Source: Alphaproteobacteria bacterium
GTDB lineage: Bacteria > Pseudomonadota > Alphaproteobacteria > RF32 > CAG-239
Reading direction: 5' to 3'
Assembly: GCA_017480745.1 (NCBI GenBank)
Contig: JAFUSA010000008.1
Span: 86,090 to 150,089 of the forward strand
Length of the DNA stretch: 64,000 bases
Of this stretch, positions 3,276 to 58,217 are shown piece after piece (the first letter of the stretch is position 1; each line of letters opens with the position of its first letter). A program made the position numbers and the translations under genes. The notes under the pieces were generated by a model. That model was not told the origin of the DNA. It was given only the letters and a program-made list of their open reading frames with translations, and searched no databases.

Positions 3276-3487
3276 TTGACTTTGAATTTTTTTGTGATAT
3301 AGTGAGCATAAGATGAGGTAACTTGTCTGAGGTATCCTAACCTCTCTAACAGCGTCTTTTAGGGCGTAAATTTTTCCGGCCACGGTCGGAAGGTCGCAAA
3401 ATGAAGCAGTGTGCGAATATGCGACACTATTCTGTTAGATAGTTAGGAACTTCCGGCCGTCTTGTCTGAGGCGGTTGTTTTTTTAAC
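3276..3487 (+). promoter_or_regulatory. Class A structured leader (promoter + ~190-nt RNA + terminator hairpin) upstream of a non-pilin ORF
   Basis: TTGACT 3276-3281, 16-nt spacer, TGaTATAGT ending at 3303. Conserved blocks gatgaggtaacttgtctgaggt..acctc, ttccggcc/ggtcggaagg, gtcgca..tgcgac, actat..atagt, then acttccggccgtc..gaggcgg + T-run 3478-3485. Confidence 0.75.
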
Positions 3488-3515
3488 AACAAAAGAGCAA
3501 AAAAGGAAAATAACG

Positions 3516-3791
3516 ATGACTTTTGATGTTGAACACACTTATGACGGAACAGTTAAAGTTCGTCGTCATTATGATTTTTACACAACAGTGGAAATTAAGG
3601 AACGAGATTATCAATTTGTTTTATGCTGGCATTTTTTGGATGAAAAACAAAAAGAACAAGTTTTGCAATATATTCGCCAAATAAGCGATAACAAATTTCC
3701 GTTTCGCGATACATCTCAATACCCGCCATTTAAGCCGAAAAAATACCTTAAAACTCTGTTGAGTATGGCTGATTTATTCCATTGGATGTGA
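3516..3791 (+). CDS. Hypothetical small protein (91 aa)
   Basis: ATG at 3516 is preceded by aaaagga. The track's upstream extension (3462) overlaps the leader terminator, so I trimmed it. No recognisable domain. Confidence 0.55.
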   Translation: MTFDVEHTYDGTVKVRRHYDFYTTVEIKERDYQFVLCWHFLDEKQKEQVLQYIRQISDNKFPFRDTSQYPPFKPKKYLKTLLSMADLFHWM

Positions 3792-7577: not shown

Positions 7578-8108
7578 TTACTCAGGCATTGACAAGCCGA
7601 ACGGATCTTGTTTAGGCTTATCATTTGCCTTTTCTTCCGAGGCAATCGGTTCAACCTCAGAAGTATTTTGCGCTTTTTCTACCGCATTTTGAATTTCATC
7701 AAAACTAAACAGAGGGCTTCCAAAGCGATCAAACACGGTATCTTCATTTAAAACCTGCTGCCATTGCAATTTATGAGCTTCTTCTGACAAAGGCTCAACC
7801 GCATGTTGCAGACTTAAAGCATACACATCATCCCAAGTATAAATTTTTCCCGAATCCAAATTAACATGCGATATTTGATGTGTGTTGGCATCAATATACG
7901 CAAAATGTCCTTTCTCATCTGTGTAATTTTTGCACGGAATATCTATCGGATCCGGATATTCTACTTTTGGAGCGGTATTACTTTTTGTGATTTCAACTGT
8001 TTCAGTTGCAACACCCTGCGCAGAAGATACTTGCGTTTTTCTATCAGTAGAGGTAGCCGAATCTGACTTAATTCCCCTCAAAGCATTAAGCTGTTCAAGC
8101 GTTAGCAT
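7578..8108 (-). CDS. Hypothetical protein (176 aa)
   Basis: Start overlaps the stop of the upstream ORF (TAATG), suggesting translational coupling. No domain recognised. Confidence 0.55.
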   Translation of the reverse strand: MLTLEQLNALRGIKSDSATSTDRKTQVSSAQGVATETVEITKSNTAPKVEYPDPIDIPCKNYTDEKGHFAYIDANTHQISHVNLDSGKIYTWDDVYALSLQHAVEPLSEEAHKLQWQQVLNEDTVFDRFGSPLFSFDEIQNAVEKAQNTSEVEPIASEEKANDKPKQDPFGLSMPE

Positions 8109-8938
8109 TATCTTCCCCCGTAGTCAATCCACTTATCAGATAACATCTTACTTGTGGCAGCGCCATCTAATTTTTGGCCACGACTGATACTGGCTTGTGT
8201 ATCAGCACCATATTGTAATTGTTCTTGCAATATATGGCTAGCCTGATATCTGTCTATTGACTTGAGATGTCCGTCTTTAGTTTTTTCGTAGTGGCGTACA
8301 TTTTTATATACACCATCAGAACCTTTATCATTCGGATCGTAAGTGGTGATAATGTCACCGCGCTGAACAGCGGCTGTGCGCAACTCCTGACCTTCACGAT
8401 CCGCCTTGCGGGCACAACAGAATTTCATATTATCATATTCACGGCGCTTTTCATAATCAATGATTATACCGCCATTAGACATAGGCACACCCATTCCGTC
8501 CGCAAAATGTAATTGATCGCGTAAAGCATAAATGATTTCCGGATCCTTAGTAATTATCATTTCTTTGCCGTGGTATACCTTTGCCGCATAAACACCATTA
8601 TTGGAACCTACCATGCCGACAGCCGTTTTACCGCCGATATCTTGACCGGCCATTTCATCATCATATACTTGAAAATCATTGCGCGCAAAAGCTCCCTTCT
8701 CCTTTTCGTACGGGTGAACATGCTGTCCCCCAAAGGAGGCATAAGGATTTTCAACCAGATTATAATGTCCATCCGTCTGCCCATCACTAACCTTAATGTT
8801 CTCATAATCTTTGACAACCATGAATGTATTTTCAGCAAAGCCCATTTCCTTCAATTTGGTGCTTAATGGTTTCACTTCGTAACTTTCAGGATTATGCACC
8901 ATTTCCTTCCAAGTAGTATCTCTTGACTGCCATGACAT
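8108..8938 (-). CDS. Hypothetical protein (276 aa)
   Basis: Start trimmed to ATG 8938 (MSWQSRDTTWKE) behind a strong RBS, aaggag. The track extension to 9052 runs through the leader hairpin. Confidence 0.6.
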   Translation of the reverse strand: MSWQSRDTTWKEMVHNPESYEVKPLSTKLKEMGFAENTFMVVKDYENIKVSDGQTDGHYNLVENPYASFGGQHVHPYEKEKGAFARNDFQVYDDEMAGQDIGGKTAVGMVGSNNGVYAAKVYHGKEMIITKDPEIIYALRDQLHFADGMGVPMSNGGIIIDYEKRREYDNMKFCCARKADREGQELRTAAVQRGDIITTYDPNDKGSDGVYKNVRHYEKTKDGHLKSIDRYQASHILQEQLQYGADTQASISRGQKLDGAATSKMLSDKWIDYGGR

Positions 8939-8959
8939 CTCTTTTCTCCTTAATTTGTT

Positions 8960-9128
8960 AAAACGACAAAGCCGCCCGAACCGGCGGCAGAGGAGTGCAA
9001 AATCATATTTGTACAAAGGAACAACGGTTTCAGCATTGCATACAAACAACACCGGTACAAATAGGAGCTTTGCAGGCCCCGAACCAAAGTTCTATATTCA
9101 TTATACCCTAAAAAAAAATAAAAGTCAA
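8960..9128 (-). promoter_or_regulatory. Short class-B-like leader (promoter + 5' hairpins + terminator hairpin) upstream of a non-pilin operon
   Basis: On the minus strand: TTGACT (9128-9123), 17-nt spacer, TATAAT (9105-9100). Then agaactttggttcggggcctgcaaagctcc as in class B, ending ctgccgccggttcgggcggctttgtcgtttt. Confidence 0.65.
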
Positions 9129-16940: not shown

Positions 16941-17027
16941 GCGCTTGTGGCGGAATCGGTAGACGCTGCAGACTTAAAATCTGTTGGGATTTATCCCGTG
17001 CCAGTTCAAGTCTGGCCTAGCGCACCA
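16941..17027 (+). tRNA. tRNA-Leu (anticodon UAA), CCA encoded
   Basis: 87 nt. Acceptor gcgcttg/ctagcgc, anticodon loop cuUAAaa, long variable arm, T arm gccag-ttcaagt-ctggc. Confidence 0.9.
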
Positions 17028-17133: not shown

Positions 17134-17220
17134 TGGTGCCCTGAAGAAGACTCGAACTTCCACTGCCTGAGGCAACATGCACCTGAAGCATGCGCGTCTA
17201 CCAATTCCGCCATCAGGGCA
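17134..17220 (-). tRNA. tRNA-Leu (anticodon CAG), CCA encoded
   Basis: Reverse complement tgccctgatggcggaattggtagacgcg-catgc-ttCAGgt-gcatg..., long variable arm, ends in ...gggcacca. Confidence 0.9.
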
Positions 17221-17369: not shown

Positions 17370-17993
17370 TTACTTAACTTCTCCGCTGAGGGAGCTATCT
17401 GCGAAAAACATGATGACGGTATCATATCTATTAGTGCACATATTTACCGCTCCCTCCACACTAACCGGAACTTTTAAATCGTGCAAAGCTCCATCATCAT
17501 CACTGATAGTGATTATATTTATATTTGCTACTGTCCAGTCATAAGTTAATAGTTCAATACAAACTTCATCAGGAATATCATAATAGGCTATACTGAATGC
17601 TTTATTATCTTCCTCTTCTGCTAAACTAACCCCACCACCGAAAGGATTGGTAATAGAGGTGATTTTACCAGCCGCATTAATGGTAATCATTTCATCAGGG
17701 AATATTTTGGCTTTTTTAACTATCGGACAGCCATCACCGGAAGATTGCCCATAGCAACCGGCACTATTGCAATAACAACGCACCCCGATATAATTCTTCT
17801 GTGGTCCCCAAAAGGCATGCACATTTCCGGCAATGAGGGTTATTTGCTCAATGGTTTTATTGATTCTGTGTTTCATCATTGCTTTGCTATATCCGGCAAT
17901 TCCACCAACAGATAATACGCCGATTATGGCGAGCACTCCTAACATTTCTATCATTGAACGACCATTTTGATATTTAATTTCAAAGTTTCTCAT
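17370..17993 (-). CDS. Prepilin-like protein, paralog 2
   Basis: MRNFEIKYQNG|RSMIEMLGVLAIIGVLSVGGIAGYSKAMMKHRINKTIEQITLIAGNVHAFW...VCIELLTYDW. Confidence 0.8.
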   Translation of the reverse strand: MRNFEIKYQNGRSMIEMLGVLAIIGVLSVGGIAGYSKAMMKHRINKTIEQITLIAGNVHAFWGPQKNYIGVRCYCNSAGCYGQSSGDGCPIVKKAKIFPDEMITINAAGKITSITNPFGGGVSLAEEEDNKAFSIAYYDIPDEVCIELLTYDWTVANINIITISDDDGALHDLKVPVSVEGAVNMCTNRYDTVIMFFADSSLSGEVK

Positions 17994-36015: not shown

Positions 36016-36222
36016 AAAACAACCGCCCGATAAGGCGGCCGGAAGTTCGTAACTACTGCAATTAATAGTGTCGCATATTCAACCCATAGTCTTATTCTGC
36101 GACCTTCCGGCCACAAAGCCGGAAATTTTTACGTCTTTAAGACGAATTGCAAGAGGTTACGACACCTCAGACAAGTTACCTCATCTTGATTTTATGATAG
36201 CATAACAAAAACTGAAAGTCAA
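36016..36222 (-). promoter_or_regulatory. Class A structured leader of pilin paralog 6
   Basis: Minus strand: TTGACT (36222-36217), 17-nt spacer, TATCAT (36199-36194). Canonical class A blocks. Terminator ggccgccttatcgggcggttgtttt. Confidence 0.75.
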
Positions 36223-41981: not shown

Positions 41982-42050
41982 ATTGCTAAAATAACACAAA
42001 AATTTTTCTTGTTTTGTTTGTTATATTTTTGCGGATTTTGCAAAAAGTGG

Positions 42051-42257
42051 TTGACTTTTGAGCTTTTTATGATATAGTAAAAGCAAGATGAGGTAACTTG
42101 TCTGAGGTGTCAGAACCTCTTGCAATTCGTCTTAAAGACGTAAAAATTTCCGGCTTTGTGGCCGGAAGGTCGTGGAATAAAACTATAGGTTGAATATGCG
42201 GCACTATTAATTGCAGTAGTTCTGAACTTCCGGCCGCCCTTATCGGGTGGTTGTTTT
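42051..42257 (+). promoter_or_regulatory. Class A structured leader of pilin paralog 8 (reference copy)
   Basis: TTGACT 42051-42056, 16-nt spacer, TGaTATAGT (-10 at 42073-42078). Segment 1 ttccggc 42148-42154, segment 2 gccggaagg 42161-42169, segment 3 cttccggcc 42227-42235. Terminator cggccgccc/gggtggttg + tttt to 42257. Confidence 0.78.
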
Positions 42258-42292
42258 AGTGTAATATCAACAAAAATGAAAGGAAGTTTACT

Positions 42293-42970
42293 ATGAAAAA
42301 CTTAGAAATAAAAAATCAAAACGGTCGTTCAATGATAGAGATGTTAGGTGTTCTTGCCATCATCGGTGTTTTGAGTGTCGGTGGAATCGCCGGATATTCC
42401 AAAGCTATGCAAAAATATAGAATTAACAAAACCATTGAGCAAATAACACTTATTACCGGAAACGTTCGCTCATTTTTTGCCAGTCAAGGAAATTATAGGG
42501 GATTAAGTTCAACTAATACAGGAAAAGCGATTATCAAAAAAGCTAAACTTGTACCTGATGAAATGTTAGAGCTCAATGCCGATGGTACCATAAAGCAAAT
42601 TAACAACTCTTTCGGCGGAACGGTTTTGATTGAAGCTGCTAATAAATCAAGTTCAGCTAATGGAAGTGAGCCTATATACATTTATGGTGATGAAAAAGCT
42701 TTTGCTTTATCTTTCAGCGATATTCCGCAGGAGGCCTGTATTGAATTGGTAACACAAGATTGGAGCGAGGCCAACATCGGAGCCCTCCAAAAAGGAGGTT
42801 TTATTCCTACTAAGAATAATGTAATTTTTACACCGGCAAGCATCGATATCGCCACGAATATGTGTGGTTCTACAAATGAAATATCTTTTTTTGCTGATGT
42901 TGATACTAATTCCACTTATTGGAAAGGTCTTTTGGGTGATGAAAAGTTGGTGGGTACTATCGGTAATTAG
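42293..42970 (+). CDS. Prepilin-like protein, paralog 8
   Basis: MKNLEIKNQNG|RSMIEMLGVLAIIGVLSVGGIAGYSKAMQKYRINKTIEQITLITGNVRSFF...EACIELVTQDW...NMCG. Confidence 0.8.
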   Translation: MKNLEIKNQNGRSMIEMLGVLAIIGVLSVGGIAGYSKAMQKYRINKTIEQITLITGNVRSFFASQGNYRGLSSTNTGKAIIKKAKLVPDEMLELNADGTIKQINNSFGGTVLIEAANKSSSANGSEPIYIYGDEKAFALSFSDIPQEACIELVTQDWSEANIGALQKGGFIPTKNNVIFTPASIDIATNMCGSTNEISFFADVDTNSTYWKGLLGDEKLVGTIGN

Positions 42971-43055
42971 GAGTAAAAACATAATCAAATCGACACGAAA
43001 ATAACTCACTTCCGAGTAGTATTGCGAGTTAGTGTCGTTAAAAAATTATACTGCT

Positions 43056-43349
43056 TTATCCCACAATTGTGGCTTCATAAGCATAAACAATCTCGGTTTC
43101 ATCCGGATTATCGGTCGGTGCAATTTCGCACACCAAAAGTTTTTCTTTATCGTGCAAATTATTGAAAATTTCCGCGCCCACTTCTTGCAAAGTCAACGCA
43201 TCTGCGCCGTTGCGATAAAGCTCCACAACCTGCTCCTTGGCAATTAAACGCACAGCAGGTCCCACCGGTTCAGTTTCGCGCGCATAAATAACCAGCATAA
43301 CCTCATTGTCTTCGCTAATCATAAAATCAAAGGTATTCATATCAGCCAT
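43056..43349 (-). CDS. Hypothetical small acidic protein (97 aa)
   Basis: Clean ORF with no domain recognised. Confidence 0.5.
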   Translation of the reverse strand: MADMNTFDFMISEDNEVMLVIYARETEPVGPAVRLIAKEQVVELYRNGADALTLQEVGAEIFNNLHDKEKLLVCEIAPTDNPDETEIVYAYEATIVG

Positions 43350-43427
43350 GGTTAATCATCCTTTTTTATTCGTCTTAAACGAATTTTAGGATATTTAGGT
43401 TAATATTTGTATAACAAAGGAACAAAA

Positions 43428-44105
43428 ATGAATAAATATTTTGATTTTTTTCTTAATCTTTTTCGCTGGCCGGTCGCTATTTTTTTGTTGTTTTCCATTC
43501 CGGCTTTGATTGATTCCTTTAACTACTTTGATTTCAAAACAGAGCGATTTTATGCTTTTGCCGGTGGAGCTATTTTATATTTTGCCATGATGATTATCGT
43601 CGGTTCAAATGTATATCGCACTATGCAAATCATTTCTCATGAATTAACACATACTGTTTTTGCGTTGCTTACTTTTCATGATGCCGGAAAAATACGTATA
43701 AATCCGGACGGCAGTGGTGGATCTATGCAAGTTAAAGGCGGAGGTAACTGGCTTATAACTCTTTCGCCTTACTTTTTTCCGTTGTTTGCTTTTTTGTATA
43801 TGCTTATAATGCCGGGACTGTTGCAAATAGGTCAAAATCATTGGCTTGTGCACCTTTTTTACGGGTATCTGATCGCTTATTATTGGGCAACGATAATTGA
43901 TCAGGTTCACCCTAAACAAACAGATATTATTCGTGAAGGATATCTGTTTTCAACCATAATCATAGTCGGAAGCAATTTATATATCAGTGGTTTAGCGCTT
44001 GCCTTCAACAGCCAACAATGGGACGGCATAGTAAAATATCTGCGTATGGTGCATAAGTTTAATCTGCAATATTGGCCAAAAATCATGGCTTTTATCGGCG
44101 TATAA
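43428..44105 (+). CDS. Integral membrane HExxH metalloprotease-like protein
   Basis: IISHELTHTVF motif within a multi-TM protein. Start trimmed to 43428. Confidence 0.55.
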   Translation: MNKYFDFFLNLFRWPVAIFLLFSIPALIDSFNYFDFKTERFYAFAGGAILYFAMMIIVGSNVYRTMQIISHELTHTVFALLTFHDAGKIRINPDGSGGSMQVKGGGNWLITLSPYFFPLFAFLYMLIMPGLLQIGQNHWLVHLFYGYLIAYYWATIIDQVHPKQTDIIREGYLFSTIIIVGSNLYISGLALAFNSQQWDGIVKYLRMVHKFNLQYWPKIMAFIGV

Positions 44106-44982
44106 TTTCCAAAGTTGCCGTATCGGCACACAAACAAACATCAGCTCCTAAGGGCAAAACATAGCGCGACTTGGTGTGCCCGAAGTTAAAATTATTAACC
44201 GTCGGCAAATCAACGCCTTGCAAAAAGTCATTGATACAGTCTTTCACGGTTCCGTCTTCCGTATCTCCGGTGCAATCGGTAAATTGTCCGAAAATAATTC
44301 CTTTAAGATTCTTAAAATCAGGCTGTTGTTTTAATTGCTGCAACATTAAGTCTATTTTGTGTATGCGCTCGTGCACATCTTCAATCAACAAAATTTTTCC
44401 ACTCAAATCGGGAAAATATTCCGTTCCAGCCAACCTTAACAACACACTCAAATTACTAACTATAAGCTGTCCCTCGGCTGTTCCTCCATGAATTGTATCG
44501 CCGGAATGTATTGTCATTTTTTCTTCTTTAAGATTTTTTTGCAAAGTTTCAGAAATTAAGGGATCCAATACACCATCTCTAAAATCATAGGTCAAATTAA
44601 AGCCGTTAATGGAGTGAATACCGCTTTTTTGATAAAGCGCCAACTGCACAGCAACGTTATCACAAAAACCAATTACCGGTTTGGGATTTTTTTGCGCAGT
44701 TTCATAGTCAATATAAGGCAAAATACGGCTTCCACCAGCCGCCGCACGCACACAAAATAAAGCTTTTATTTGCGGATCGCAAAATGCAATGTTTATATCT
44801 TCCGCTCTTTGTTCGTCAGTTCCGGCCATATAACGATTAACCGCAAAAATATGTTTTCCCAACACCGGTTGAAAACCGAGTTGGCGCAAGTAATTTAAGC
44901 CTTGCTCTATTTTGCTGATTTCACCTATTTGCCCACAAGGAGCCACAATCGCAACTTTATCTCCGGCAACAAGTTTATTCAT
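44092..44982 (-). CDS. LD-carboxypeptidase (peptidase S66, LdcA-like)
   Basis: GDKVAIVAPCG N-terminus, IGFCDN at the nucleophile-elbow position, LIEDVHE, and FGHT near the C-terminus. Confidence 0.7.
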   Translation of the reverse strand: MNKLVAGDKVAIVAPCGQIGEISKIEQGLNYLRQLGFQPVLGKHIFAVNRYMAGTDEQRAEDINIAFCDPQIKALFCVRAAAGGSRILPYIDYETAQKNPKPVIGFCDNVAVQLALYQKSGIHSINGFNLTYDFRDGVLDPLISETLQKNLKEEKMTIHSGDTIHGGTAEGQLIVSNLSVLLRLAGTEYFPDLSGKILLIEDVHERIHKIDLMLQQLKQQPDFKNLKGIIFGQFTDCTGDTEDGTVKDCINDFLQGVDLPTVNNFNFGHTKSRYVLPLGADVCLCADTATLEIIRR

Positions 44983-46347
44983 TTATAATTTCTCCAAAAT
45001 TTCGTAGCACAAATCAGTCAACGAATTATCGCGCGCTCCCATTATAACAATACGATCATTAGGTTTGACCAAAGACAATATCTTTTCTTTTGCCTCATCT
45101 TTATTTGCCGCAAAATAAGCTTCCTTTTTGCCGAGTGTATGCACATAATTTATAAAATCTGCCGAAGATATATCTTTGGTAACCGTTCCGCCGACAAAGA
45201 ATATTTCAGGCATAATTAAAATATCATCAGAGCCCATATTAGCGGCAAATTCTGCCATAATTTCCTTACCAAGCGAGCGCATCGGTCCGAAACCATGCGG
45301 TTGAAACATTATAATCAAACGCCCGTCATATTGCCGTAACGCACTGACTGAAGCTTTTACTTTATCGGGATTATGCGCGAAATCATCAATCACTGTTATA
45401 TTATTTTTTTGCCCAATAACTTCTAAACGACGTTTAGTACCGTGAAAATCCTGCAAAATTTCCGCCGCACGCAACTTATCCACCCCAAAAACCGAGCAAG
45501 TTGCAATTGCAGACAGTGCATTTGCCACATTAAAAGCACCAATTAAATTAAGACTGAAATGTTTACCGCAAAAATTATAACATACTCCGCCGGCAATAGG
45601 AGTTATTTGTGATGCATAAAAATCAGCTTGCGGATTTTGCAACGAAAAAGTCAACGGTCTGTTTTTATGAGTTATTGTGCGGCACAAATCATAATCATCG
45701 TTAATAATCACCCGTTCGGCCGTACGATCAGATAAATGTTGAAACAATTCCCGCAATTCACTCAACGATTTATGGTCTGCCGATATATTGTTTATTACCG
45801 CAACATAAGGATTATACAAATCTATACTGCCATTGCTTTCATCTGCTTCTGCCACACAAATATCCCCGTTATTATAGATAATATTAGGAATGGCATATTG
45901 CCCTTCATAATCGCGCAATAACCCTCCGTTTATCATACAAGGCTTGTAACCGGCCTTATCCAAAATAAATCCAATCATAGCCGTTGTGGTTGTCTTTCCG
46001 CTTGTTCCGCCCACGGCAATACCGTATTTATAACCATGAAAAGTTTTTGCCAAAAGCTCGGGCCTTGTAATTATTCGCACACCTTTTTCTTTTGCGACTT
46101 TAATATCGGCAATACTATCTTCCACCGCCGTAGAAGCACAAACAAAATCTATACTTTCATCAATTCCCGATCCGTCTTGCGGAAAAATGGAAATTCCGGC
46201 TTTTTCAAGCGCTAAACGATTTTTAGTATCACGCCCCAAATCAAAATTGCGATCAGATCCTTGCACTATATTACCGGAAAGTTTCAAAATTTGTGCCAGT
46301 GAGCTCATACCGCTACCTGATATACCGCAAAAACTTATCTTAGCCAT
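44983..46347 (-). CDS. Mur ligase family protein (MurC/Mpl-like)
   Basis: GISGSGMSSLA Rossmann N-terminus, GGTSGKTTTT, EADESNGS, NISADH. Confidence 0.75.
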   Translation of the reverse strand: MAKISFCGISGSGMSSLAQILKLSGNIVQGSDRNFDLGRDTKNRLALEKAGISIFPQDGSGIDESIDFVCASTAVEDSIADIKVAKEKGVRIITRPELLAKTFHGYKYGIAVGGTSGKTTTTAMIGFILDKAGYKPCMINGGLLRDYEGQYAIPNIIYNNGDICVAEADESNGSIDLYNPYVAVINNISADHKSLSELRELFQHLSDRTAERVIINDDYDLCRTITHKNRPLTFSLQNPQADFYASQITPIAGGVCYNFCGKHFSLNLIGAFNVANALSAIATCSVFGVDKLRAAEILQDFHGTKRRLEVIGQKNNITVIDDFAHNPDKVKASVSALRQYDGRLIIMFQPHGFGPMRSLGKEIMAEFAANMGSDDILIMPEIFFVGGTVTKDISSADFINYVHTLGKKEAYFAANKDEAKEKILSLVKPNDRIVIMGARDNSLTDLCYEILEKL

Positions 46348-46356
46348 TATCTCACC

Positions 46357-47655
46357 TTAAATATCACTGATTAACTCATTCAACAAACCCTCTTTTTCCT
46401 TTTGCAAAAGAGGTAAATTTTTGTAATCTATTGTAATATAGCTTTGTTGCTTGTCATTTGCTAACAAATCTATTACAGCTCCTATGCTTTCACTTTCAAA
46501 CGTTGCATAAAGAGTGGCTTTATTTTGCGCTAATTCCTGCAAAAAGTCATCATTACCGATAGGATTAGACTTCTCTACCACACCAACAGATTTTTCTTTA
46601 TCATCTGCTTCAAGCGCAATAACATTCGGAGAAAAAAATTCTTTGGCATTACCATATTTTTGCTCCAAAGCTTTATAATATTGATGATATAATCGTAGCC
46701 CCTCTCCGGCTTTATTATCATCATTTTGCAACGCACTTTGCGCATATATGCAGTAAAGGTGATTTTGAGAACCGAAAACTGCTAATATCCGCGCAAAAGT
46801 TTTTTTATTTTGCTTAGGATTTTTTACTTCATAGACATTTTGATATTCTTCCCGTTCGGCTTGCTCTAACTTAAAACCCAGAGCTTCCGTTTCTTCTTTG
46901 GAAGCATCCCAATATAAGCCAAACGGAGCCCCCTCAAACCTGTCGGCTAAAGCTTGTTTTTCATTATCTTCCGCTTGACTTTTTTGAGGCGAGACTATCT
47001 TCTTCGGTTCTGTCGGAAGAGATTTTATTATCGGAACTTGCACATTATTTGCCGGAATCTGATTATTTAAACCGCCCGAACTATCCTTTTTTTGCGGCGC
47101 TTCCGACAATACTTCCCGTTCAAAAATTTCCTGAGCCTTTTTTTGCTCATATTCCTTGCGTTTTCTATCCCCTTCTTCAATCATTTTTATTTGATTTTGC
47201 CGTAACGAAAGAATATTCGGTTTTTTAGAAAGAATATCGCGAGCATCTTTTTGAGCCTTATCTGCGGTTTCTAACCCCTGCAAATATTCATTCATAACAT
47301 TTTTGCGTTCATCAAATTCAATATCGTCAACATTATTTTCTTGCATAAAATCATCGAAATCATTTTCTTTTTGCCGAATATCTTCCGCTTGATCTGCTTT
47401 CGTTTCCGATTTTACAACGGTTAACGAACCGTTCAAAATAGCCGGATTTTTCTCCTCAATCGTAGCAACTGTTTCAGCAACACTATCTGCTGTTTTTTCC
47501 TTATCAGGCTCAACCGTTACTTCTTCTTTCTGTGTTTCAACAACCTGTTCATCAACCGCTTCGTCCAATCCCAAAAAATCCATTTGAGCTATCGCCGATT
47601 GCGGATTTACAACCATCAATAACCATGCCGAAAGTAAAAATAGACTGTTTCTCAT
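46357..47655 (-). CDS. Hypothetical secreted K/E-rich protein (432 aa)
   Basis: Signal peptide MRNSLFLLSAWLLMVVNPQSAIA and a charged low-complexity middle region. Confidence 0.55.
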   Translation of the reverse strand: MRNSLFLLSAWLLMVVNPQSAIAQMDFLGLDEAVDEQVVETQKEEVTVEPDKEKTADSVAETVATIEEKNPAILNGSLTVVKSETKADQAEDIRQKENDFDDFMQENNVDDIEFDERKNVMNEYLQGLETADKAQKDARDILSKKPNILSLRQNQIKMIEEGDRKRKEYEQKKAQEIFEREVLSEAPQKKDSSGGLNNQIPANNVQVPIIKSLPTEPKKIVSPQKSQAEDNEKQALADRFEGAPFGLYWDASKEETEALGFKLEQAEREEYQNVYEVKNPKQNKKTFARILAVFGSQNHLYCIYAQSALQNDDNKAGEGLRLYHQYYKALEQKYGNAKEFFSPNVIALEADDKEKSVGVVEKSNPIGNDDFLQELAQNKATLYATFESESIGAVIDLLANDKQQSYITIDYKNLPLLQKEKEGLLNELISDI

Positions 47656-47754
47656 AAATAATCCCTTGATAACCGCAAAAAAAAATTGAATAACTTTTTT
47701 CTTTGATTATAATATCGTTTAAATGCAAATATTTTATTAATTATATGGCATAAA

Positions 47755-48348
47755 ATGGAAAAAGACGAATTACAGAATTTTTTAATTAACATAGGGCGCT
47801 CTATGGTGCAGGAAAACGGCACAGATGCGCTGACAGTGCGCAAATTGTCCGAAGCTTCCAAATGCTCGGTCGGCGCCATATATAACCAGTTTTCCAATAT
47901 GGATAACTATATCGTGATCCAAAATTGCATAACTCTTGATGAGTTACACGCTGCTTTAAGCAAAGTGCAACGTTCCAACAACGTGTTCATCGATATGAAT
48001 AATTATTTGCAGACTTTTGTTGACTATGTTTTGGATAATAAAAATTTATGGTATATGCTTTATACCTTTCACTTGAAACATAATAAATATCGCTATTCAT
48101 CATTTTATTTGCGCAAAATAATAAAAATTGTGCGTATTGTTAATGAGCTGCTAAAAGATGCCACTCCGCGAGTTGAAAGACCTGAACGTCTGCTTTCGGC
48201 TCAGGTTTTATGGCTGACAATGTTTTCACTCAGCGCCTTGCTCACTAAGGATATTTTAGACTCTTTTTCCAAAATCAATCGCCGCAATTTGTGTGAAATT
48301 GTTTTGAATACTTTTGTTGCCGGTATGACTGTGCTGGAAAATAGGTAA
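47755..48348 (+). CDS. TetR-family transcriptional regulator
   Basis: N-terminal HTH: GTDALTVRKLSEASKCSVGAIYNQF. Confidence 0.8.
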   Translation: MEKDELQNFLINIGRSMVQENGTDALTVRKLSEASKCSVGAIYNQFSNMDNYIVIQNCITLDELHAALSKVQRSNNVFIDMNNYLQTFVDYVLDNKNLWYMLYTFHLKHNKYRYSSFYLRKIIKIVRIVNELLKDATPRVERPERLLSAQVLWLTMFSLSALLTKDILDSFSKINRRNLCEIVLNTFVAGMTVLENR

Positions 48349-48360
48349 TTTTTAAACAAA

Positions 48361-48546
48361 GCGCTCGCCGACGTGTTGAAAGCTACCTAATAGAATAGTG
48401 TCGCATATTATACAATTTATTCTGCGACCTTCCGACCATTGTCGGAAACATTTTACGTCCTGTCTGACGCTATTAGAGAGGCTTTCAAACCTCAGACAAG
48501 TTACCTCATCTTACTTAGATACTATCACAAAAAATGTAAAAGTCAA
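48361..48546 (-). ncRNA. Orphan class A leader-like RNA with promoter but no downstream gene
   Basis: Minus strand: TTGACT (48546-48541), 16-nt spacer, TGaTAGTAT. Then gatgaggtaacttgtctgaggtttgaaagcctc, cgtc..gacg, tttccgacaatggtcggaagg, gtcgca..tgcgac, cactatt. The 3' part diverges and runs into the convergent tetR stop. Confidence 0.6.
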
Positions 48547-48618
48547 ACTTTTTTTCGTAGTCAAACACAAAATTATGGCGCGCTATAATTTGTGCTTATA
48601 CACCAAATCATAAAAGTC

Positions 48619-49761
48619 TTATTTATCTCCGCAGAAAAAATAAGCCAAAAAATCTTTATAAACATTATAGAGAGTTGCAATATTCGCCAAATCTTCACAC
48701 TCATTGTTTTTATGAATAGTTTTATTGGTCAAACCATATTCCACAACCGGACAATAATTTTTCACAAATCGCGCATCTGATGTTCCGCCGGCGGTTGAAT
48801 AGGTCGGAATCTTTCCCGTATGTAGCTGAATGATTTTTCTTAAATTTTCTATGTGATCATTAATCGGGCTTAAAAAAGATTCTCCTACATATTCGGCCTG
48901 ATATGTAAATTGTCCGCTGGTTTGCTCTATATGTTGCCGCAACCATTGCTCAATATCGGCAAACGTATGCTCTGAATTAAAGCGAATATCTATTTGTGCA
49001 AAAGCCTTATTCGGCACAACATTAGACGCCTTGTTATTAACGTCAAATGCGGTTATATGCAAACTTGATGGTGCAAAATACGCATTACCGTCATCTAATT
49101 TATCGTGTTGCAGTGAATATAAAAGATTAACCAAATTATGCACGGGGTTACTGTTTACATCGCTATACGCTGTATGCCCTGATTGACCGTATGAAGTTAT
49201 GTTCAACACCATATCTCCGCGACGGCCTATTTTTATTTCATCTCCCATTGTTAGCGGATTCGACGGTTCTCCGACAATGGCAAAATCAAAATACTCCCGT
49301 TCTTCCGATAATAATTTGAGCATTTTTTTACTACCTTCAACTATCGGTTCTTCTTCATCGCCGGAAATAATCAGCGTAATTTTGCCTGAAAAATCGTTAT
49401 TTTGAATGAAATCTTTGCAAGCCTGCAAAAAACAAGCAATACCGCCTTTCATATCAGCGATTCCGCGACCATATAAAATATCATCTTCAATTTTTGCCGC
49501 AAAAGGTGAAAATTGCCATAAGGATATATCATTTGCCGGAACAACATCAATATGCCCGACAAACAAAAGATGTGGTTTGCCGCTTCCAAAACTTGCACAC
49601 AAGTTAGAAACTTTTTTCCCTTCCGTCTCAAAATCCACAATGCGGGCAGAAAAATTATTTTGTTCCAAAAAATTTTTCAAAAACAACAATGCTTCTGTGC
49701 AATTATTACCAACACTTTGAAATTGCACCAGTTTTTGACATAATTCTATTAAATCAGACAT
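48619..49761 (-). CDS. dapE: Succinyl-diaminopimelate desuccinylase (M20 family)
   Basis: HLLFVGHIDVVP, GRGIADMKG and overall M20 layout, about 380 aa. Confidence 0.75.
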   Translation of the reverse strand: MSDLIELCQKLVQFQSVGNNCTEALLFLKNFLEQNNFSARIVDFETEGKKVSNLCASFGSGKPHLLFVGHIDVVPANDISLWQFSPFAAKIEDDILYGRGIADMKGGIACFLQACKDFIQNNDFSGKITLIISGDEEEPIVEGSKKMLKLLSEEREYFDFAIVGEPSNPLTMGDEIKIGRRGDMVLNITSYGQSGHTAYSDVNSNPVHNLVNLLYSLQHDKLDDGNAYFAPSSLHITAFDVNNKASNVVPNKAFAQIDIRFNSEHTFADIEQWLRQHIEQTSGQFTYQAEYVGESFLSPINDHIENLRKIIQLHTGKIPTYSTAGGTSDARFVKNYCPVVEYGLTNKTIHKNNECEDLANIATLYNVYKDFLAYFFCGDK

Positions 49762-56550: not shown

Positions 56551-57420
56551 CTACTTAAAACCCAATATAATCTCGCAAGTATCTTCTGTGCACGAACATG
56601 CGGCAACAGCTTTTTCCAGTGGAAGCGGCAAAGTATTTCCCGCTGGACAAAAATACCTATCATCTTCCGCGGTACAATCATTATCCGCGACATTAGCCAT
56701 ATCTCCGTCCAACGTTTCATTGATATACATACCTACAACATTTGCGGCTTGCCAATCATGACTGGCTATCTCAATACAGGCTTCTGCCGGTAAATATGCT
56801 ATGCTTATGCCAAAAGCTGTAAAACCATTAGTTACATTCTCCGATAATACAACCCCACCACCGAAGGGATTGGTAATAGCGGTAATTTTTTTACCGGTAG
56901 AATCAAGAGTAATCATTTCATCCGGTAATATCTTGGCTTTTTTTATTATCGGACAGCCATTGACAGTAGAAGTAGGATAGCCGCTGCTGCTAACACCGCC
57001 ATCACTTCCCTTACATCCGTTGGTTGCATTGCAGGTATAACCACTACAATTAACCCCGATATAGTTCTTCTGTGGTCCCCAGAAAGCACGCACATTGCCG
57101 GCAATTAATGTTATTTGCTCAATAGTTTTATTGATGCGATACTTTTGCATTGCCTTACTATATCCGGCTATTCCGCCAACGCTTAATACGCCGATTATAG
57201 CCAGTACGCCTAACATCTCGATCATTGAACGACCAGACTGCGGCGCATCTGCACCACTCTCCGCAAGAGGTGAACATCCACTCTGTTCACTTTTTGCATC
57301 AAGCACTTCTTTTGCAGTTAAAAACGTATTGCAACAAATATTCCATGGAGCGGATGAAAATCCGCGACCCGGCGCACCAGCGCCGTTAATGTTTTGTTTA
57401 GAATTTATATTTCTCATCAT
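56551..57420 (-). CDS. Prepilin-like protein, paralog 10 (63-aa presequence)
   Basis: MMRNINSKQNINGAGAPGRGFSSAPWNICCNTFLTAKEVLDAKSEQSGCSPLAESGADAPQSG|RSMIEMLGVLAIIGVLSVGGIAGYSKAMQKYRINKTIEQITLIAGNVRAFW...EACIEIASHDW. Confidence 0.78.
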   Translation of the reverse strand: MMRNINSKQNINGAGAPGRGFSSAPWNICCNTFLTAKEVLDAKSEQSGCSPLAESGADAPQSGRSMIEMLGVLAIIGVLSVGGIAGYSKAMQKYRINKTIEQITLIAGNVRAFWGPQKNYIGVNCSGYTCNATNGCKGSDGGVSSSGYPTSTVNGCPIIKKAKILPDEMITLDSTGKKITAITNPFGGGVVLSENVTNGFTAFGISIAYLPAEACIEIASHDWQAANVVGMYINETLDGDMANVADNDCTAEDDRYFCPAGNTLPLPLEKAVAACSCTEDTCEIILGFK

Positions 57421-57449: not shown

Positions 57450-57687
57450 AAAAATCAAAGGCCACCAAACGGTGGCAGGGGAGTTTACAAATCATAGAGT
57501 TTAAAATGATCCGCGCAATTTTTAGGCACAAACCCTGAACATTTACCACGCGCTCCCCGACCAAGTCGGAGATATTCATCATATCTTTAACGATGTTAAA
57601 AAAATTAACACCGTAAACTCTAAGAGCTTGTAAAGGCCCTGAACCGAAGTTCTGTTTCTATAATATCATAGAATTTTAAAAAGTCAA
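57450..57687 (-). promoter_or_regulatory. Class B structured leader of pilin paralog 10
   Basis: Minus strand: TTGACT (57687-57682), 16-nt spacer, TGaTATTAT. gaac-ttcg-gttc, tgttaa..ttaaca, atatctccgacttggtcggggag, gcgcg..tgcgc, actcccctgccaccgtttggtggc + T-run. Confidence 0.75.
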
Positions 57688-57709
57688 ACTATTTATAATA
57701 TTACTTACA

Positions 57710-57739
57710 CCAAAAATTCAGGGGCGGAAAACCGCCCCT
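57710..57739 (-). terminator. Terminator immediately after rplO
   Basis: aggggcgg-aaaa-ccgcccct with gaattttt following on the minus strand. Confidence 0.75.
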
Positions 57740-57764
57740 ATAAAACTTTAAGCAACGTTTCAAA

Positions 57765-58217
57765 TTAAGCAATGCTTACTTTACCACCGGCTTTTTCAAC
57801 CGCTGCAACAGCTGCTTTGGATGCAGAATTTACGGTAATATTAACGCTGCTGGTAATCGCTCCGCGAGCCAACAAACGAATACCGTCTAACTGCTTAGAA
57901 ATTACATTGGCTTTTAATAAAGCTTCAACAGTAATTTCCTTGGCATCTAATTTGCCGGCATCAACAGCTTTTTGAATGGTATCCAAATTTACAACAGCAT
58001 AAGTCTTTGCAAACGGATTTTTGAAACCATGCTTCGGCAATTGACGATACAACGGCATTTGTCCGCCTTCAAAACCCAACTTTGCGCCGCCACTGCGAGC
58101 TTTTTGACCCTTATGACCAAGTCCGCAGGTCTTGCCCTTACCGGAACCAATACCGCGACCAACGCGTTTACGATTCTTTGTAGCGCCTTCGTTGTCTTTT
58201 AATTCATTAAGTTTCAT
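57765..58217 (-). CDS. rplO: 50S ribosomal protein L15
   Basis: [30 protein letters not shown]. Confidence 0.95.

Follow-up and report, generated by a model that had tools for sequence, protein, structure and literature searches.

Results

A leader without a gene between dapE and tetR

In the window (the whole stretch of DNA analysed, 64,000 nucleotides long, from an uncultured alphaproteobacterium of gut or rumen) a leader of the type that we call class A lies on the minus strand at 48546–48375(−), between dapE and the convergent gene tetR. We refer to this leader, which has no gene of its own, as the orphan; its parts and neighbours are listed in Table 1. Farther along its strand, 99 nt beyond the start of tetR, an operon begins at 47655 (432-aa protein, mpl, ldcA). 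Between the dapE stop and the orphan promoter, close to both, there is an A+T-rich inverted repeat, CACAAATTAT...ATAATTTTGTG, at 48570–48600, which may be a weak dapE terminator.

Table 1. Features of the orphan locus and positions of the other leaders in the window
Feature	Position	Strand	Description	Basis
tetR	47755–48348	+	TetR/AcrR-family gene, convergent with the orphan	Pfam TetR_N
3′ flank of tetR	48349–48377		Putatively retained from an ancestral pilin 3′ region; junction at 48375–48377, GTT/AAC on both sides	Alignment with L092
Closing helix, 3′ strand	48375–48393	−	CTATTAG gta GCTTTCAA C; last leader-derived sequence	Alignment, fold, end of model match at 48375
P4 hairpin	48400–48428	−	GTCGCA...TGCGAC, then conserved ACTATT at 48399–48394	6/6 pairs change on both sides
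P3 hairpin	48428–48448	−	TTTCCGAC-aatg-GTCGGAAGG	Fold and consensus structure
Small hairpin	48456–48469	−	CGTC-agacag-GACG (P2 of the earlier note)	Fold, consensus structure, covariation
Closing helix, 5′ strand	48470–48488	−	TTGAAAGC ctct CTAATAG; pairs with 48393–48376	Fold; helix covaries among copies
P0, 5′ hairpin	48494–48511	−	AGATGAG-GTAA-CTTGTCT	Consensus structure; 7/7 pairs change on both sides across 19 leaders
Orphan promoter	48519–48546	−	−35 TTGACT at 48546–48541, 16-nt spacer with TG, −10 TAGTAT at 48524–48519	Consensus scan
dapE	48619–49761	−	Peptidase M20 gene, same strand, directly upstream of the orphan promoter
Class A leaders	3276, 15763, 28017, 30562, 36222, 42049, 51897	+, −, −, +, −, +, −	Positions of the −35 hexamers
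Class B leaders	9128, 18260, 25942, 36302, 57687	−, −, −, +, −	Positions of the −35 hexamers

The promoter has the sigma-70-type layout TTGACT-16-TGaTAGTAT, and in alignments its −35 hexamer and spacing are those of the other leader copies. Judged by its sequence, it is like the promoters of working copies and is probably still firing, with a transcript start that would fall at about 48512. The core that follows, 48375–48512(−), matched covariance model R1, built from 11 cores, over the full model length (1–142) with a score of 136.8 bits, inside the range of 122–145 bits obtained for the seven gene-linked copies in the window. It forms 31 of the 32 consensus pairs and folds with a z-score of −5.1; about 138 nt are 72–79% identical to the seven other class A leaders in the window, and the conserved motifs GGTAACTTGTCTGAGG, GGAAGGT, GAATA and CACTATT are common to the orphan and its gene-linked counterparts. 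The closing-helix sequence, TTGAAAGCctctCTAATAG, is unlike that of every other copy and pairs with the orphan's own CTATTAGgtaGCTTTCAAC (48393–48375). An earlier note on this DNA, made from the letters alone, had described a near-consensus promoter and intact hairpins, and in this it was right, the tttccgac/gtcggaagg arms of P3 being present as described. Its boundaries needed correction. Divergence from the other leaders had been placed right after cactatt, but homology extends for about another 20 nt and takes in the 3′ strand of the closing helix; and the leader had been brought to within about 15 nt of the 3′ end of tetR, whereas leader homology stops at 48375, 26 nt from the tetR stop.

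Seven contigs, each from its own metagenome assembly (L001, L004, L006–L009 and L090), carry the dapE–leader–tetR join, on which ground we rejected an assembly chimera at the orphan; in addition, the only long shared word lies farther from tetR than the closing-helix strands specific to the orphan. Within the species, the orphan shows 2 differences in 138 nt, against 0.7–4% in the flanking genes, too few to separate neutrality from constraint. Among the polymorphic sites, that at 48481 converts a C-G to a U-G pair and so keeps the pairing, and another, at 48498, breaks a pair of P0. Logan contigs L002, L003 and L091 all end at about 48506, inside P0. Near this position lie the strain polymorphisms 48498, 48508 and 48510 and a 24-nt word common to the leader copies, and the contig ends most likely reflect a break in the assembly graph without biological meaning.

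Class A leaders and their attenuator-like layout

The window holds 13 promoter-leader units of two structural classes, of which 10 precede type IVb-like pilin paralogues and 12 carry an intrinsic terminator, the orphan being the exception. In each of the seven gene-linked class A copies, promoter and structured region are followed by a G+C-rich hairpin and its T-run, then by a ribosome-binding site and finally by the gene, which in six of the seven encodes a type IVb-like pilin (Pfam PilS/Bundlin) with an invariant N-terminus. Of the five leaders of the second type, class B, four stand before further pilin genes and one before a non-pilin gene. The non-pilin ORFs are a 91-aa one behind the class A leader at 3276 (3276–3791(+)) and a 276-aa one behind the short class B leader at 9128 (8108–9128(−)), and neither matched a Pfam family above the curated cut-off. 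With two leaders placed before such ORFs, the leader regulon extends beyond pilins.

The class A fold begins with the 5′ hairpin P0 and continues with a long closing helix around three hairpins. R1 recovered all eight copies in the window, the orphan included, and found 15 further copies in the pilin loci of other MAGs (L010–L089), every one of them directly upstream of a pilin gene, so that the gene-less state is the exception. The MAGs with related pilin loci are designated Alphaproteobacteria bacterium, Proteobacteria bacterium CAG:495 and uncultured Azospirillum sp. Among 19 class A sequences from other contigs, in an alignment that was itself fitted to the model, 29 of the 32 pairs showed changes on both sides, and paired cells amounted to 97%, against about 44% with the partners slid.

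We examined 24 gene-linked class A copies from the window and from other MAGs. In all 24 the closing helix is directly followed by the 5′ arm of a terminator hairpin with a T-run, and in 22 the sequence there is complementary over 9–11 nt to the 3′ arm of P3 (GGCCGGAAGG, GGCTGGAAGG, GACTGGAAGG or GGCAGGAAGG), with duplex energies of −15.6 to −23.3 kcal/mol; in the other two our script did not locate the P3 arm. This complementarity of P3 with the terminator covaries. As predicted from these pairings, the layout is that of a terminator/antiterminator switch, and the family looks like an undescribed attenuator or riboswitch candidate. No Rfam 15 family matched the class A leaders when the whole window was searched at gathering score, and we found no literature on a pilin-associated leader or riboswitch in this lineage. 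A leader peptide in P0 (ATG AGG TAA) was considered and set aside, since the ORF is not conserved and some gene-linked copies have ATA.

When a gene-linked copy and the whole window were searched at E ≤ 10, the only matches were to RF02221 sRNA-Xcc1, below its gathering score of 53. They are full-length and lie at 42160–42243(+) (34.3 bits, window-wide E-value 0.035) and 36029–36112(−) (32.8 bits, 0.081); the copies concerned resemble each other at about 90%, and the matches are not independent. In these two gene-linked copies the outer helix of the sRNA-Xcc1 model falls where the P3 3′ arm pairs with the terminator start. The family is an integron-cassette RNA upstream of symE in Xanthomonas, a gene context unlike that of the class A leaders, and neither it nor any other Rfam family matched the orphan at E ≤ 10. 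All scores fell below the gathering score, and we treat the resemblance as unproven; it may be chance or a distant likeness.

The orphan lacks the downstream part of the leader

The orphan has neither the stretch that would pair with the 3′ arm of P3 nor an intrinsic terminator, and it also has no ribosome-binding site and no gene. Against the tail that follows the core, the P3 3′ arm forms a duplex of only −5.8 kcal/mol, and the antiterminator pairing is absent; the 50 nt beyond the core fold at −4.7 kcal/mol, compared with −7.4 to −15.7 in gene-linked copies. A terminator scan found no terminator-like site right after the leader, and in this the orphan departs from the intrinsic terminators of class A. 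No ORF of at least 60 aa starts 120–420 nt from the −35 hexamer. These results agree with the observation in the earlier note that the third segment, the canonical terminator and a gene to regulate are all missing.

The sole terminator-like site farther along the orphan's strand is weak and lies inside the tetR span, at 47949–47927(−). Orphan and tetR thus present the arrangement characteristic of cis-antisense transcription, a convergent promoter with no intervening terminator, and from this geometry it is fair to infer that transcription would enter tetR in antisense.

Neighbours of tetR and dapE in relatives

A search with TetR returned 221 homologous proteins at E ≤ 1e-5, of which the closest, at 98 and 82% identity, were used as orthologues; TetR is well conserved across the lineage. 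The dapE–leader–tetR join was present in same-species contigs, whose TetR is 98–100% identical, and the orphan was seen only there; it was absent from L092, L097, L093–L096, L100–L153 and L157. In L092, where TetR is 82% identical, a pilin ORF runs convergently towards tetR, its stop codon lying 90 nt beyond that of tetR. This ORF runs for at least 253 aa and has the invariant N-terminus GRSMIEMLGVLAIIGVLSVGGIAGYSKAM; the contig ends inside the pilin gene, and covers neither its leader nor the gene upstream. The best match of the L092 pilin in the window is the copy at 56551–57420, at 78% identity, and it is not a clear orthologue of any window pilin. When a full-length copy was sought, the best matches (75% identity) were paralogues at other loci.

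The L092 flank bears directly on the origin of the orphan. Positions 1182–1210 of L092 align with 48349–48377 of the window, and an exact 12-mer, CGCCGACGTGTT (48366–48377, +), is common to both; a shared word of 12 nt between the two flanks arose in none of 5000 shuffles. Past CGCCGACGTGTT the L092 sequence continues into the pilin 3′ region and that of the window into the closing helix of the leader.

In other relatives the surroundings differ. In L097 (DapE 86%) dapE is followed by rpsM-rpsK-rpoA, with no leader, and synteny ends 7 nt after the dapE stop. TetR orthologues of 68% identity or less have a 186–188-aa gene or DUF2155/MlaD adjoining, with no leader or pilin gene within 5 kb. A TetR-alignment search of metagenome contigs returned relatives of at most 65% identity, none of them with a leader or pilin gene near tetR, and a DapE search of genome contigs by exact peptide patterns found no relative. 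The 3′ side of tetR is occupied in L093–L096, L100 and L157 by an overlapping 186–188-aa ORF, by DUF2155/MlaD or by chromate transporters; the divergent operon upstream of tetR (secreted protein, mpl, ldcA) is conserved in relatives. On the contigs compared, the 3′ side of tetR can be described as a variable spot in the lineage.

Pilin cassettes were found at synteny breakpoints when the 42049–48546 block was compared with L100 and L097. Elsewhere in the window, at 57687–58217(−), a class B leader and its pilin gene come directly after the ribosomal protein L15 gene, which was mapped from L001 to about 57765–58217. In most bacteria secY follows the L15 gene, and a pilin cassette directly after it is another sign that these cassettes interrupt conserved gene order. 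A further pilin gene, 17370–17993, lies beside convergent tRNA-Leu genes, TAA at 16941–17027(+) and CAG at 17134–17219(−), about 100 nt apart.

Discussion

We consider the orphan most likely to be a young relic of a pilin cassette, left behind when about 1 kb was deleted. The ancestral order would have been dapE, promoter, leader, terminator and a pilin gene convergent on tetR, and a cassette in this position would go back to the ancestor that the window species has in common with L092. The flank that the window has in common with L092 up to the junction indicates a deletion of about this size, which would have spanned roughly 0.95–1.0 kb and have its ends at a 3-nt microhomology, AAC. It would have taken away the entire pilin ORF with some 60 nt of its 3′ flank and, ahead of the ORF, the ribosome-binding site, the intrinsic terminator and the partner segment of the P3 3′ arm, and the end of the closing helix would thereby have been fused to the 26 nt adjoining the tetR stop codon. 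The earlier note had suggested that a deleted pilin cassette left the leader, and had proposed that syntenic relatives be compared for a pilin gene; L092 has such a gene, convergent on tetR, and shares the flank up to the start of the window's leader, in keeping with that suggestion. We infer the ancestral state, with a pilin beside tetR, from this one 2-kb low-coverage contig. If L092 and L097 belong to the same species, dapE would not be beside the L092 cassette, and at least one further rearrangement would separate the two genomes.

Without the terminator of its family, the orphan transcript would not be cut at about 190 nt and would continue antisense into tetR until Rho or a chance terminator stopped it. 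Any selected function of such transcription would be slight at most. The orphan is free of decay; we would attribute this to a young deletion and not to purifying selection, although purifying selection would predict the same.

A leader that faces tetR, with no terminator-like site before the weak one inside that gene and with the next minus-strand genes beginning 99 nt beyond its start, might nevertheless matter in cis: unterminated antisense transcription would lower TetR by collision or antisense pairing, and may continue into the operon at 47655, linking it to the control of pilin promoters. Control of a regulator gene by antisense RNA that reads through into it from a convergent unit is described for lexA/sbrB of Staphylococcus aureus (PMC8745188). 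The orphan is comparable in having a promoter that lacks an effective terminator and faces a convergent regulator gene, but its arrangement would have arisen by deletion and is not a conserved design. We regard an effect of this kind as unlikely. It is the by-product to be expected of any such deletion and carries no sign of selection, and tetR and the upstream operon are conserved in many relatives that have no convergent leader. Moreover, an untranslated transcript of 600–860 nt is on general grounds a probable target of Rho, which is likely to stop transcription early. Equally doubtful is a role for a kept orphan core within the read-through RNA, as an effector decoy or in coupling TetR and the mpl/ldcA operon to the signal acting on pilin promoters; if this were true, the orphan would show a regulatory RNA at the moment of its emergence from a cis-acting leader. 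A maintained stand-alone RNA, whose core competes in trans for the class A effector or base-pairs with transcripts, would accord with the intact promoter, with a core as well formed as those of gene-linked copies, with the retention of the orphan in all seven same-species assemblies that span the site, and with the preserved pair at 48481. We think it quite improbable all the same, given that the lack of a predicted terminator leaves no defined 3′ end, that the arrangement is confined to one species and that the polymorphism at 48498 breaks a P0 pair. As a decoy, the orphan would by our estimate add only about one-eighth of a pool to which at least seven other class A leaders with equivalent promoters contribute within 64 kb. 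The earlier note had envisaged a stand-alone or trans-acting RNA with a discrete transcript of 150–180 nt. There is no terminator to produce one, neither L097 nor the TetR orthologues of 68% identity or less have the leader, and conservation in relatives, the test that the note itself proposed for a function, does not extend beyond one species. The orphan is not best read as a dedicated small RNA.

Rearrangement without loss has also to be considered. The orphan and the class A leader at 42049–42227(+) stand in inverted orientation on either side of a block of about 42.2–48.4 kb, and exchange between them as inverted repeats would flip the block and leave one leader always gene-less. In L100 (DapE 68%) the block that runs from a 97-aa gene to tetR has the opposite orientation with respect to dapE, and synteny with L097 breaks at the dapE stop, beside the orphan. 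The two leaders are, however, 72% identical with a longest shared run of about 24 nt, a poor substrate for homologous exchange, and no site-specific recombinase was noticed beside either among the gene calls. All seven assemblies that span the site have the same orientation, and the tetR flank of L092 abuts a pilin 3′ end, which matches neither state of a flip. We therefore give this explanation very little credence, and it seems just as remote that a flip would hand the pilin gene 42293–42970 to the orphan promoter and leader. That some repeat-associated rearrangement took place in the 42049–48546 region is plausible from the inversion of the block relative to L100. For the orphan itself we retain deletion of a pilin cassette as the preferred explanation.

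Terminator/antiterminator leaders include the T-box and the c-di-GMP-II riboswitch upstream of pilA1 in Clostridioides difficile. The class A family resembles these in that the P3 3′ arm has two alternative predicted partners, one inside the structured domain and the other in the 5′ arm of the terminator. The orphan differs from such attenuators in having the sensing-like domain only, with no expression platform. Trans-acting RNAs derived from riboswitches are known as well, among them SreA and SreB of Listeria, which are terminated SAM riboswitches, and the decoys EutX and Rli55, which contain a B12 riboswitch; these have defined 3′ ends and experimentally shown targets in trans. The orphan has in common with them that a structured RNA of leader type may exist as a transcript without a gene in cis, and is unlike them in having no terminator and no conservation beyond one species.

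Taken alone, the orphan would be a minor event, the deletion of a gene that left its promoter and leader in place. As a natural truncation it marks the boundary between core and expression platform in an undescribed leader family: the truncation point coincides with the end of the closing helix, which supports the model in which everything downstream is the switchable terminator/antiterminator part. It is also a built-in control for transcriptome work, in which read-through at the orphan compared with the seven other leaders would show the hold of the terminator on pilin expression. The leader family is more interesting than the orphan and deserves separate study. At the level of the organisms, these comparisons point to pilin cassettes that are gained, lost and rearranged between close relatives among the uncultured gut and rumen Alphaproteobacteria.
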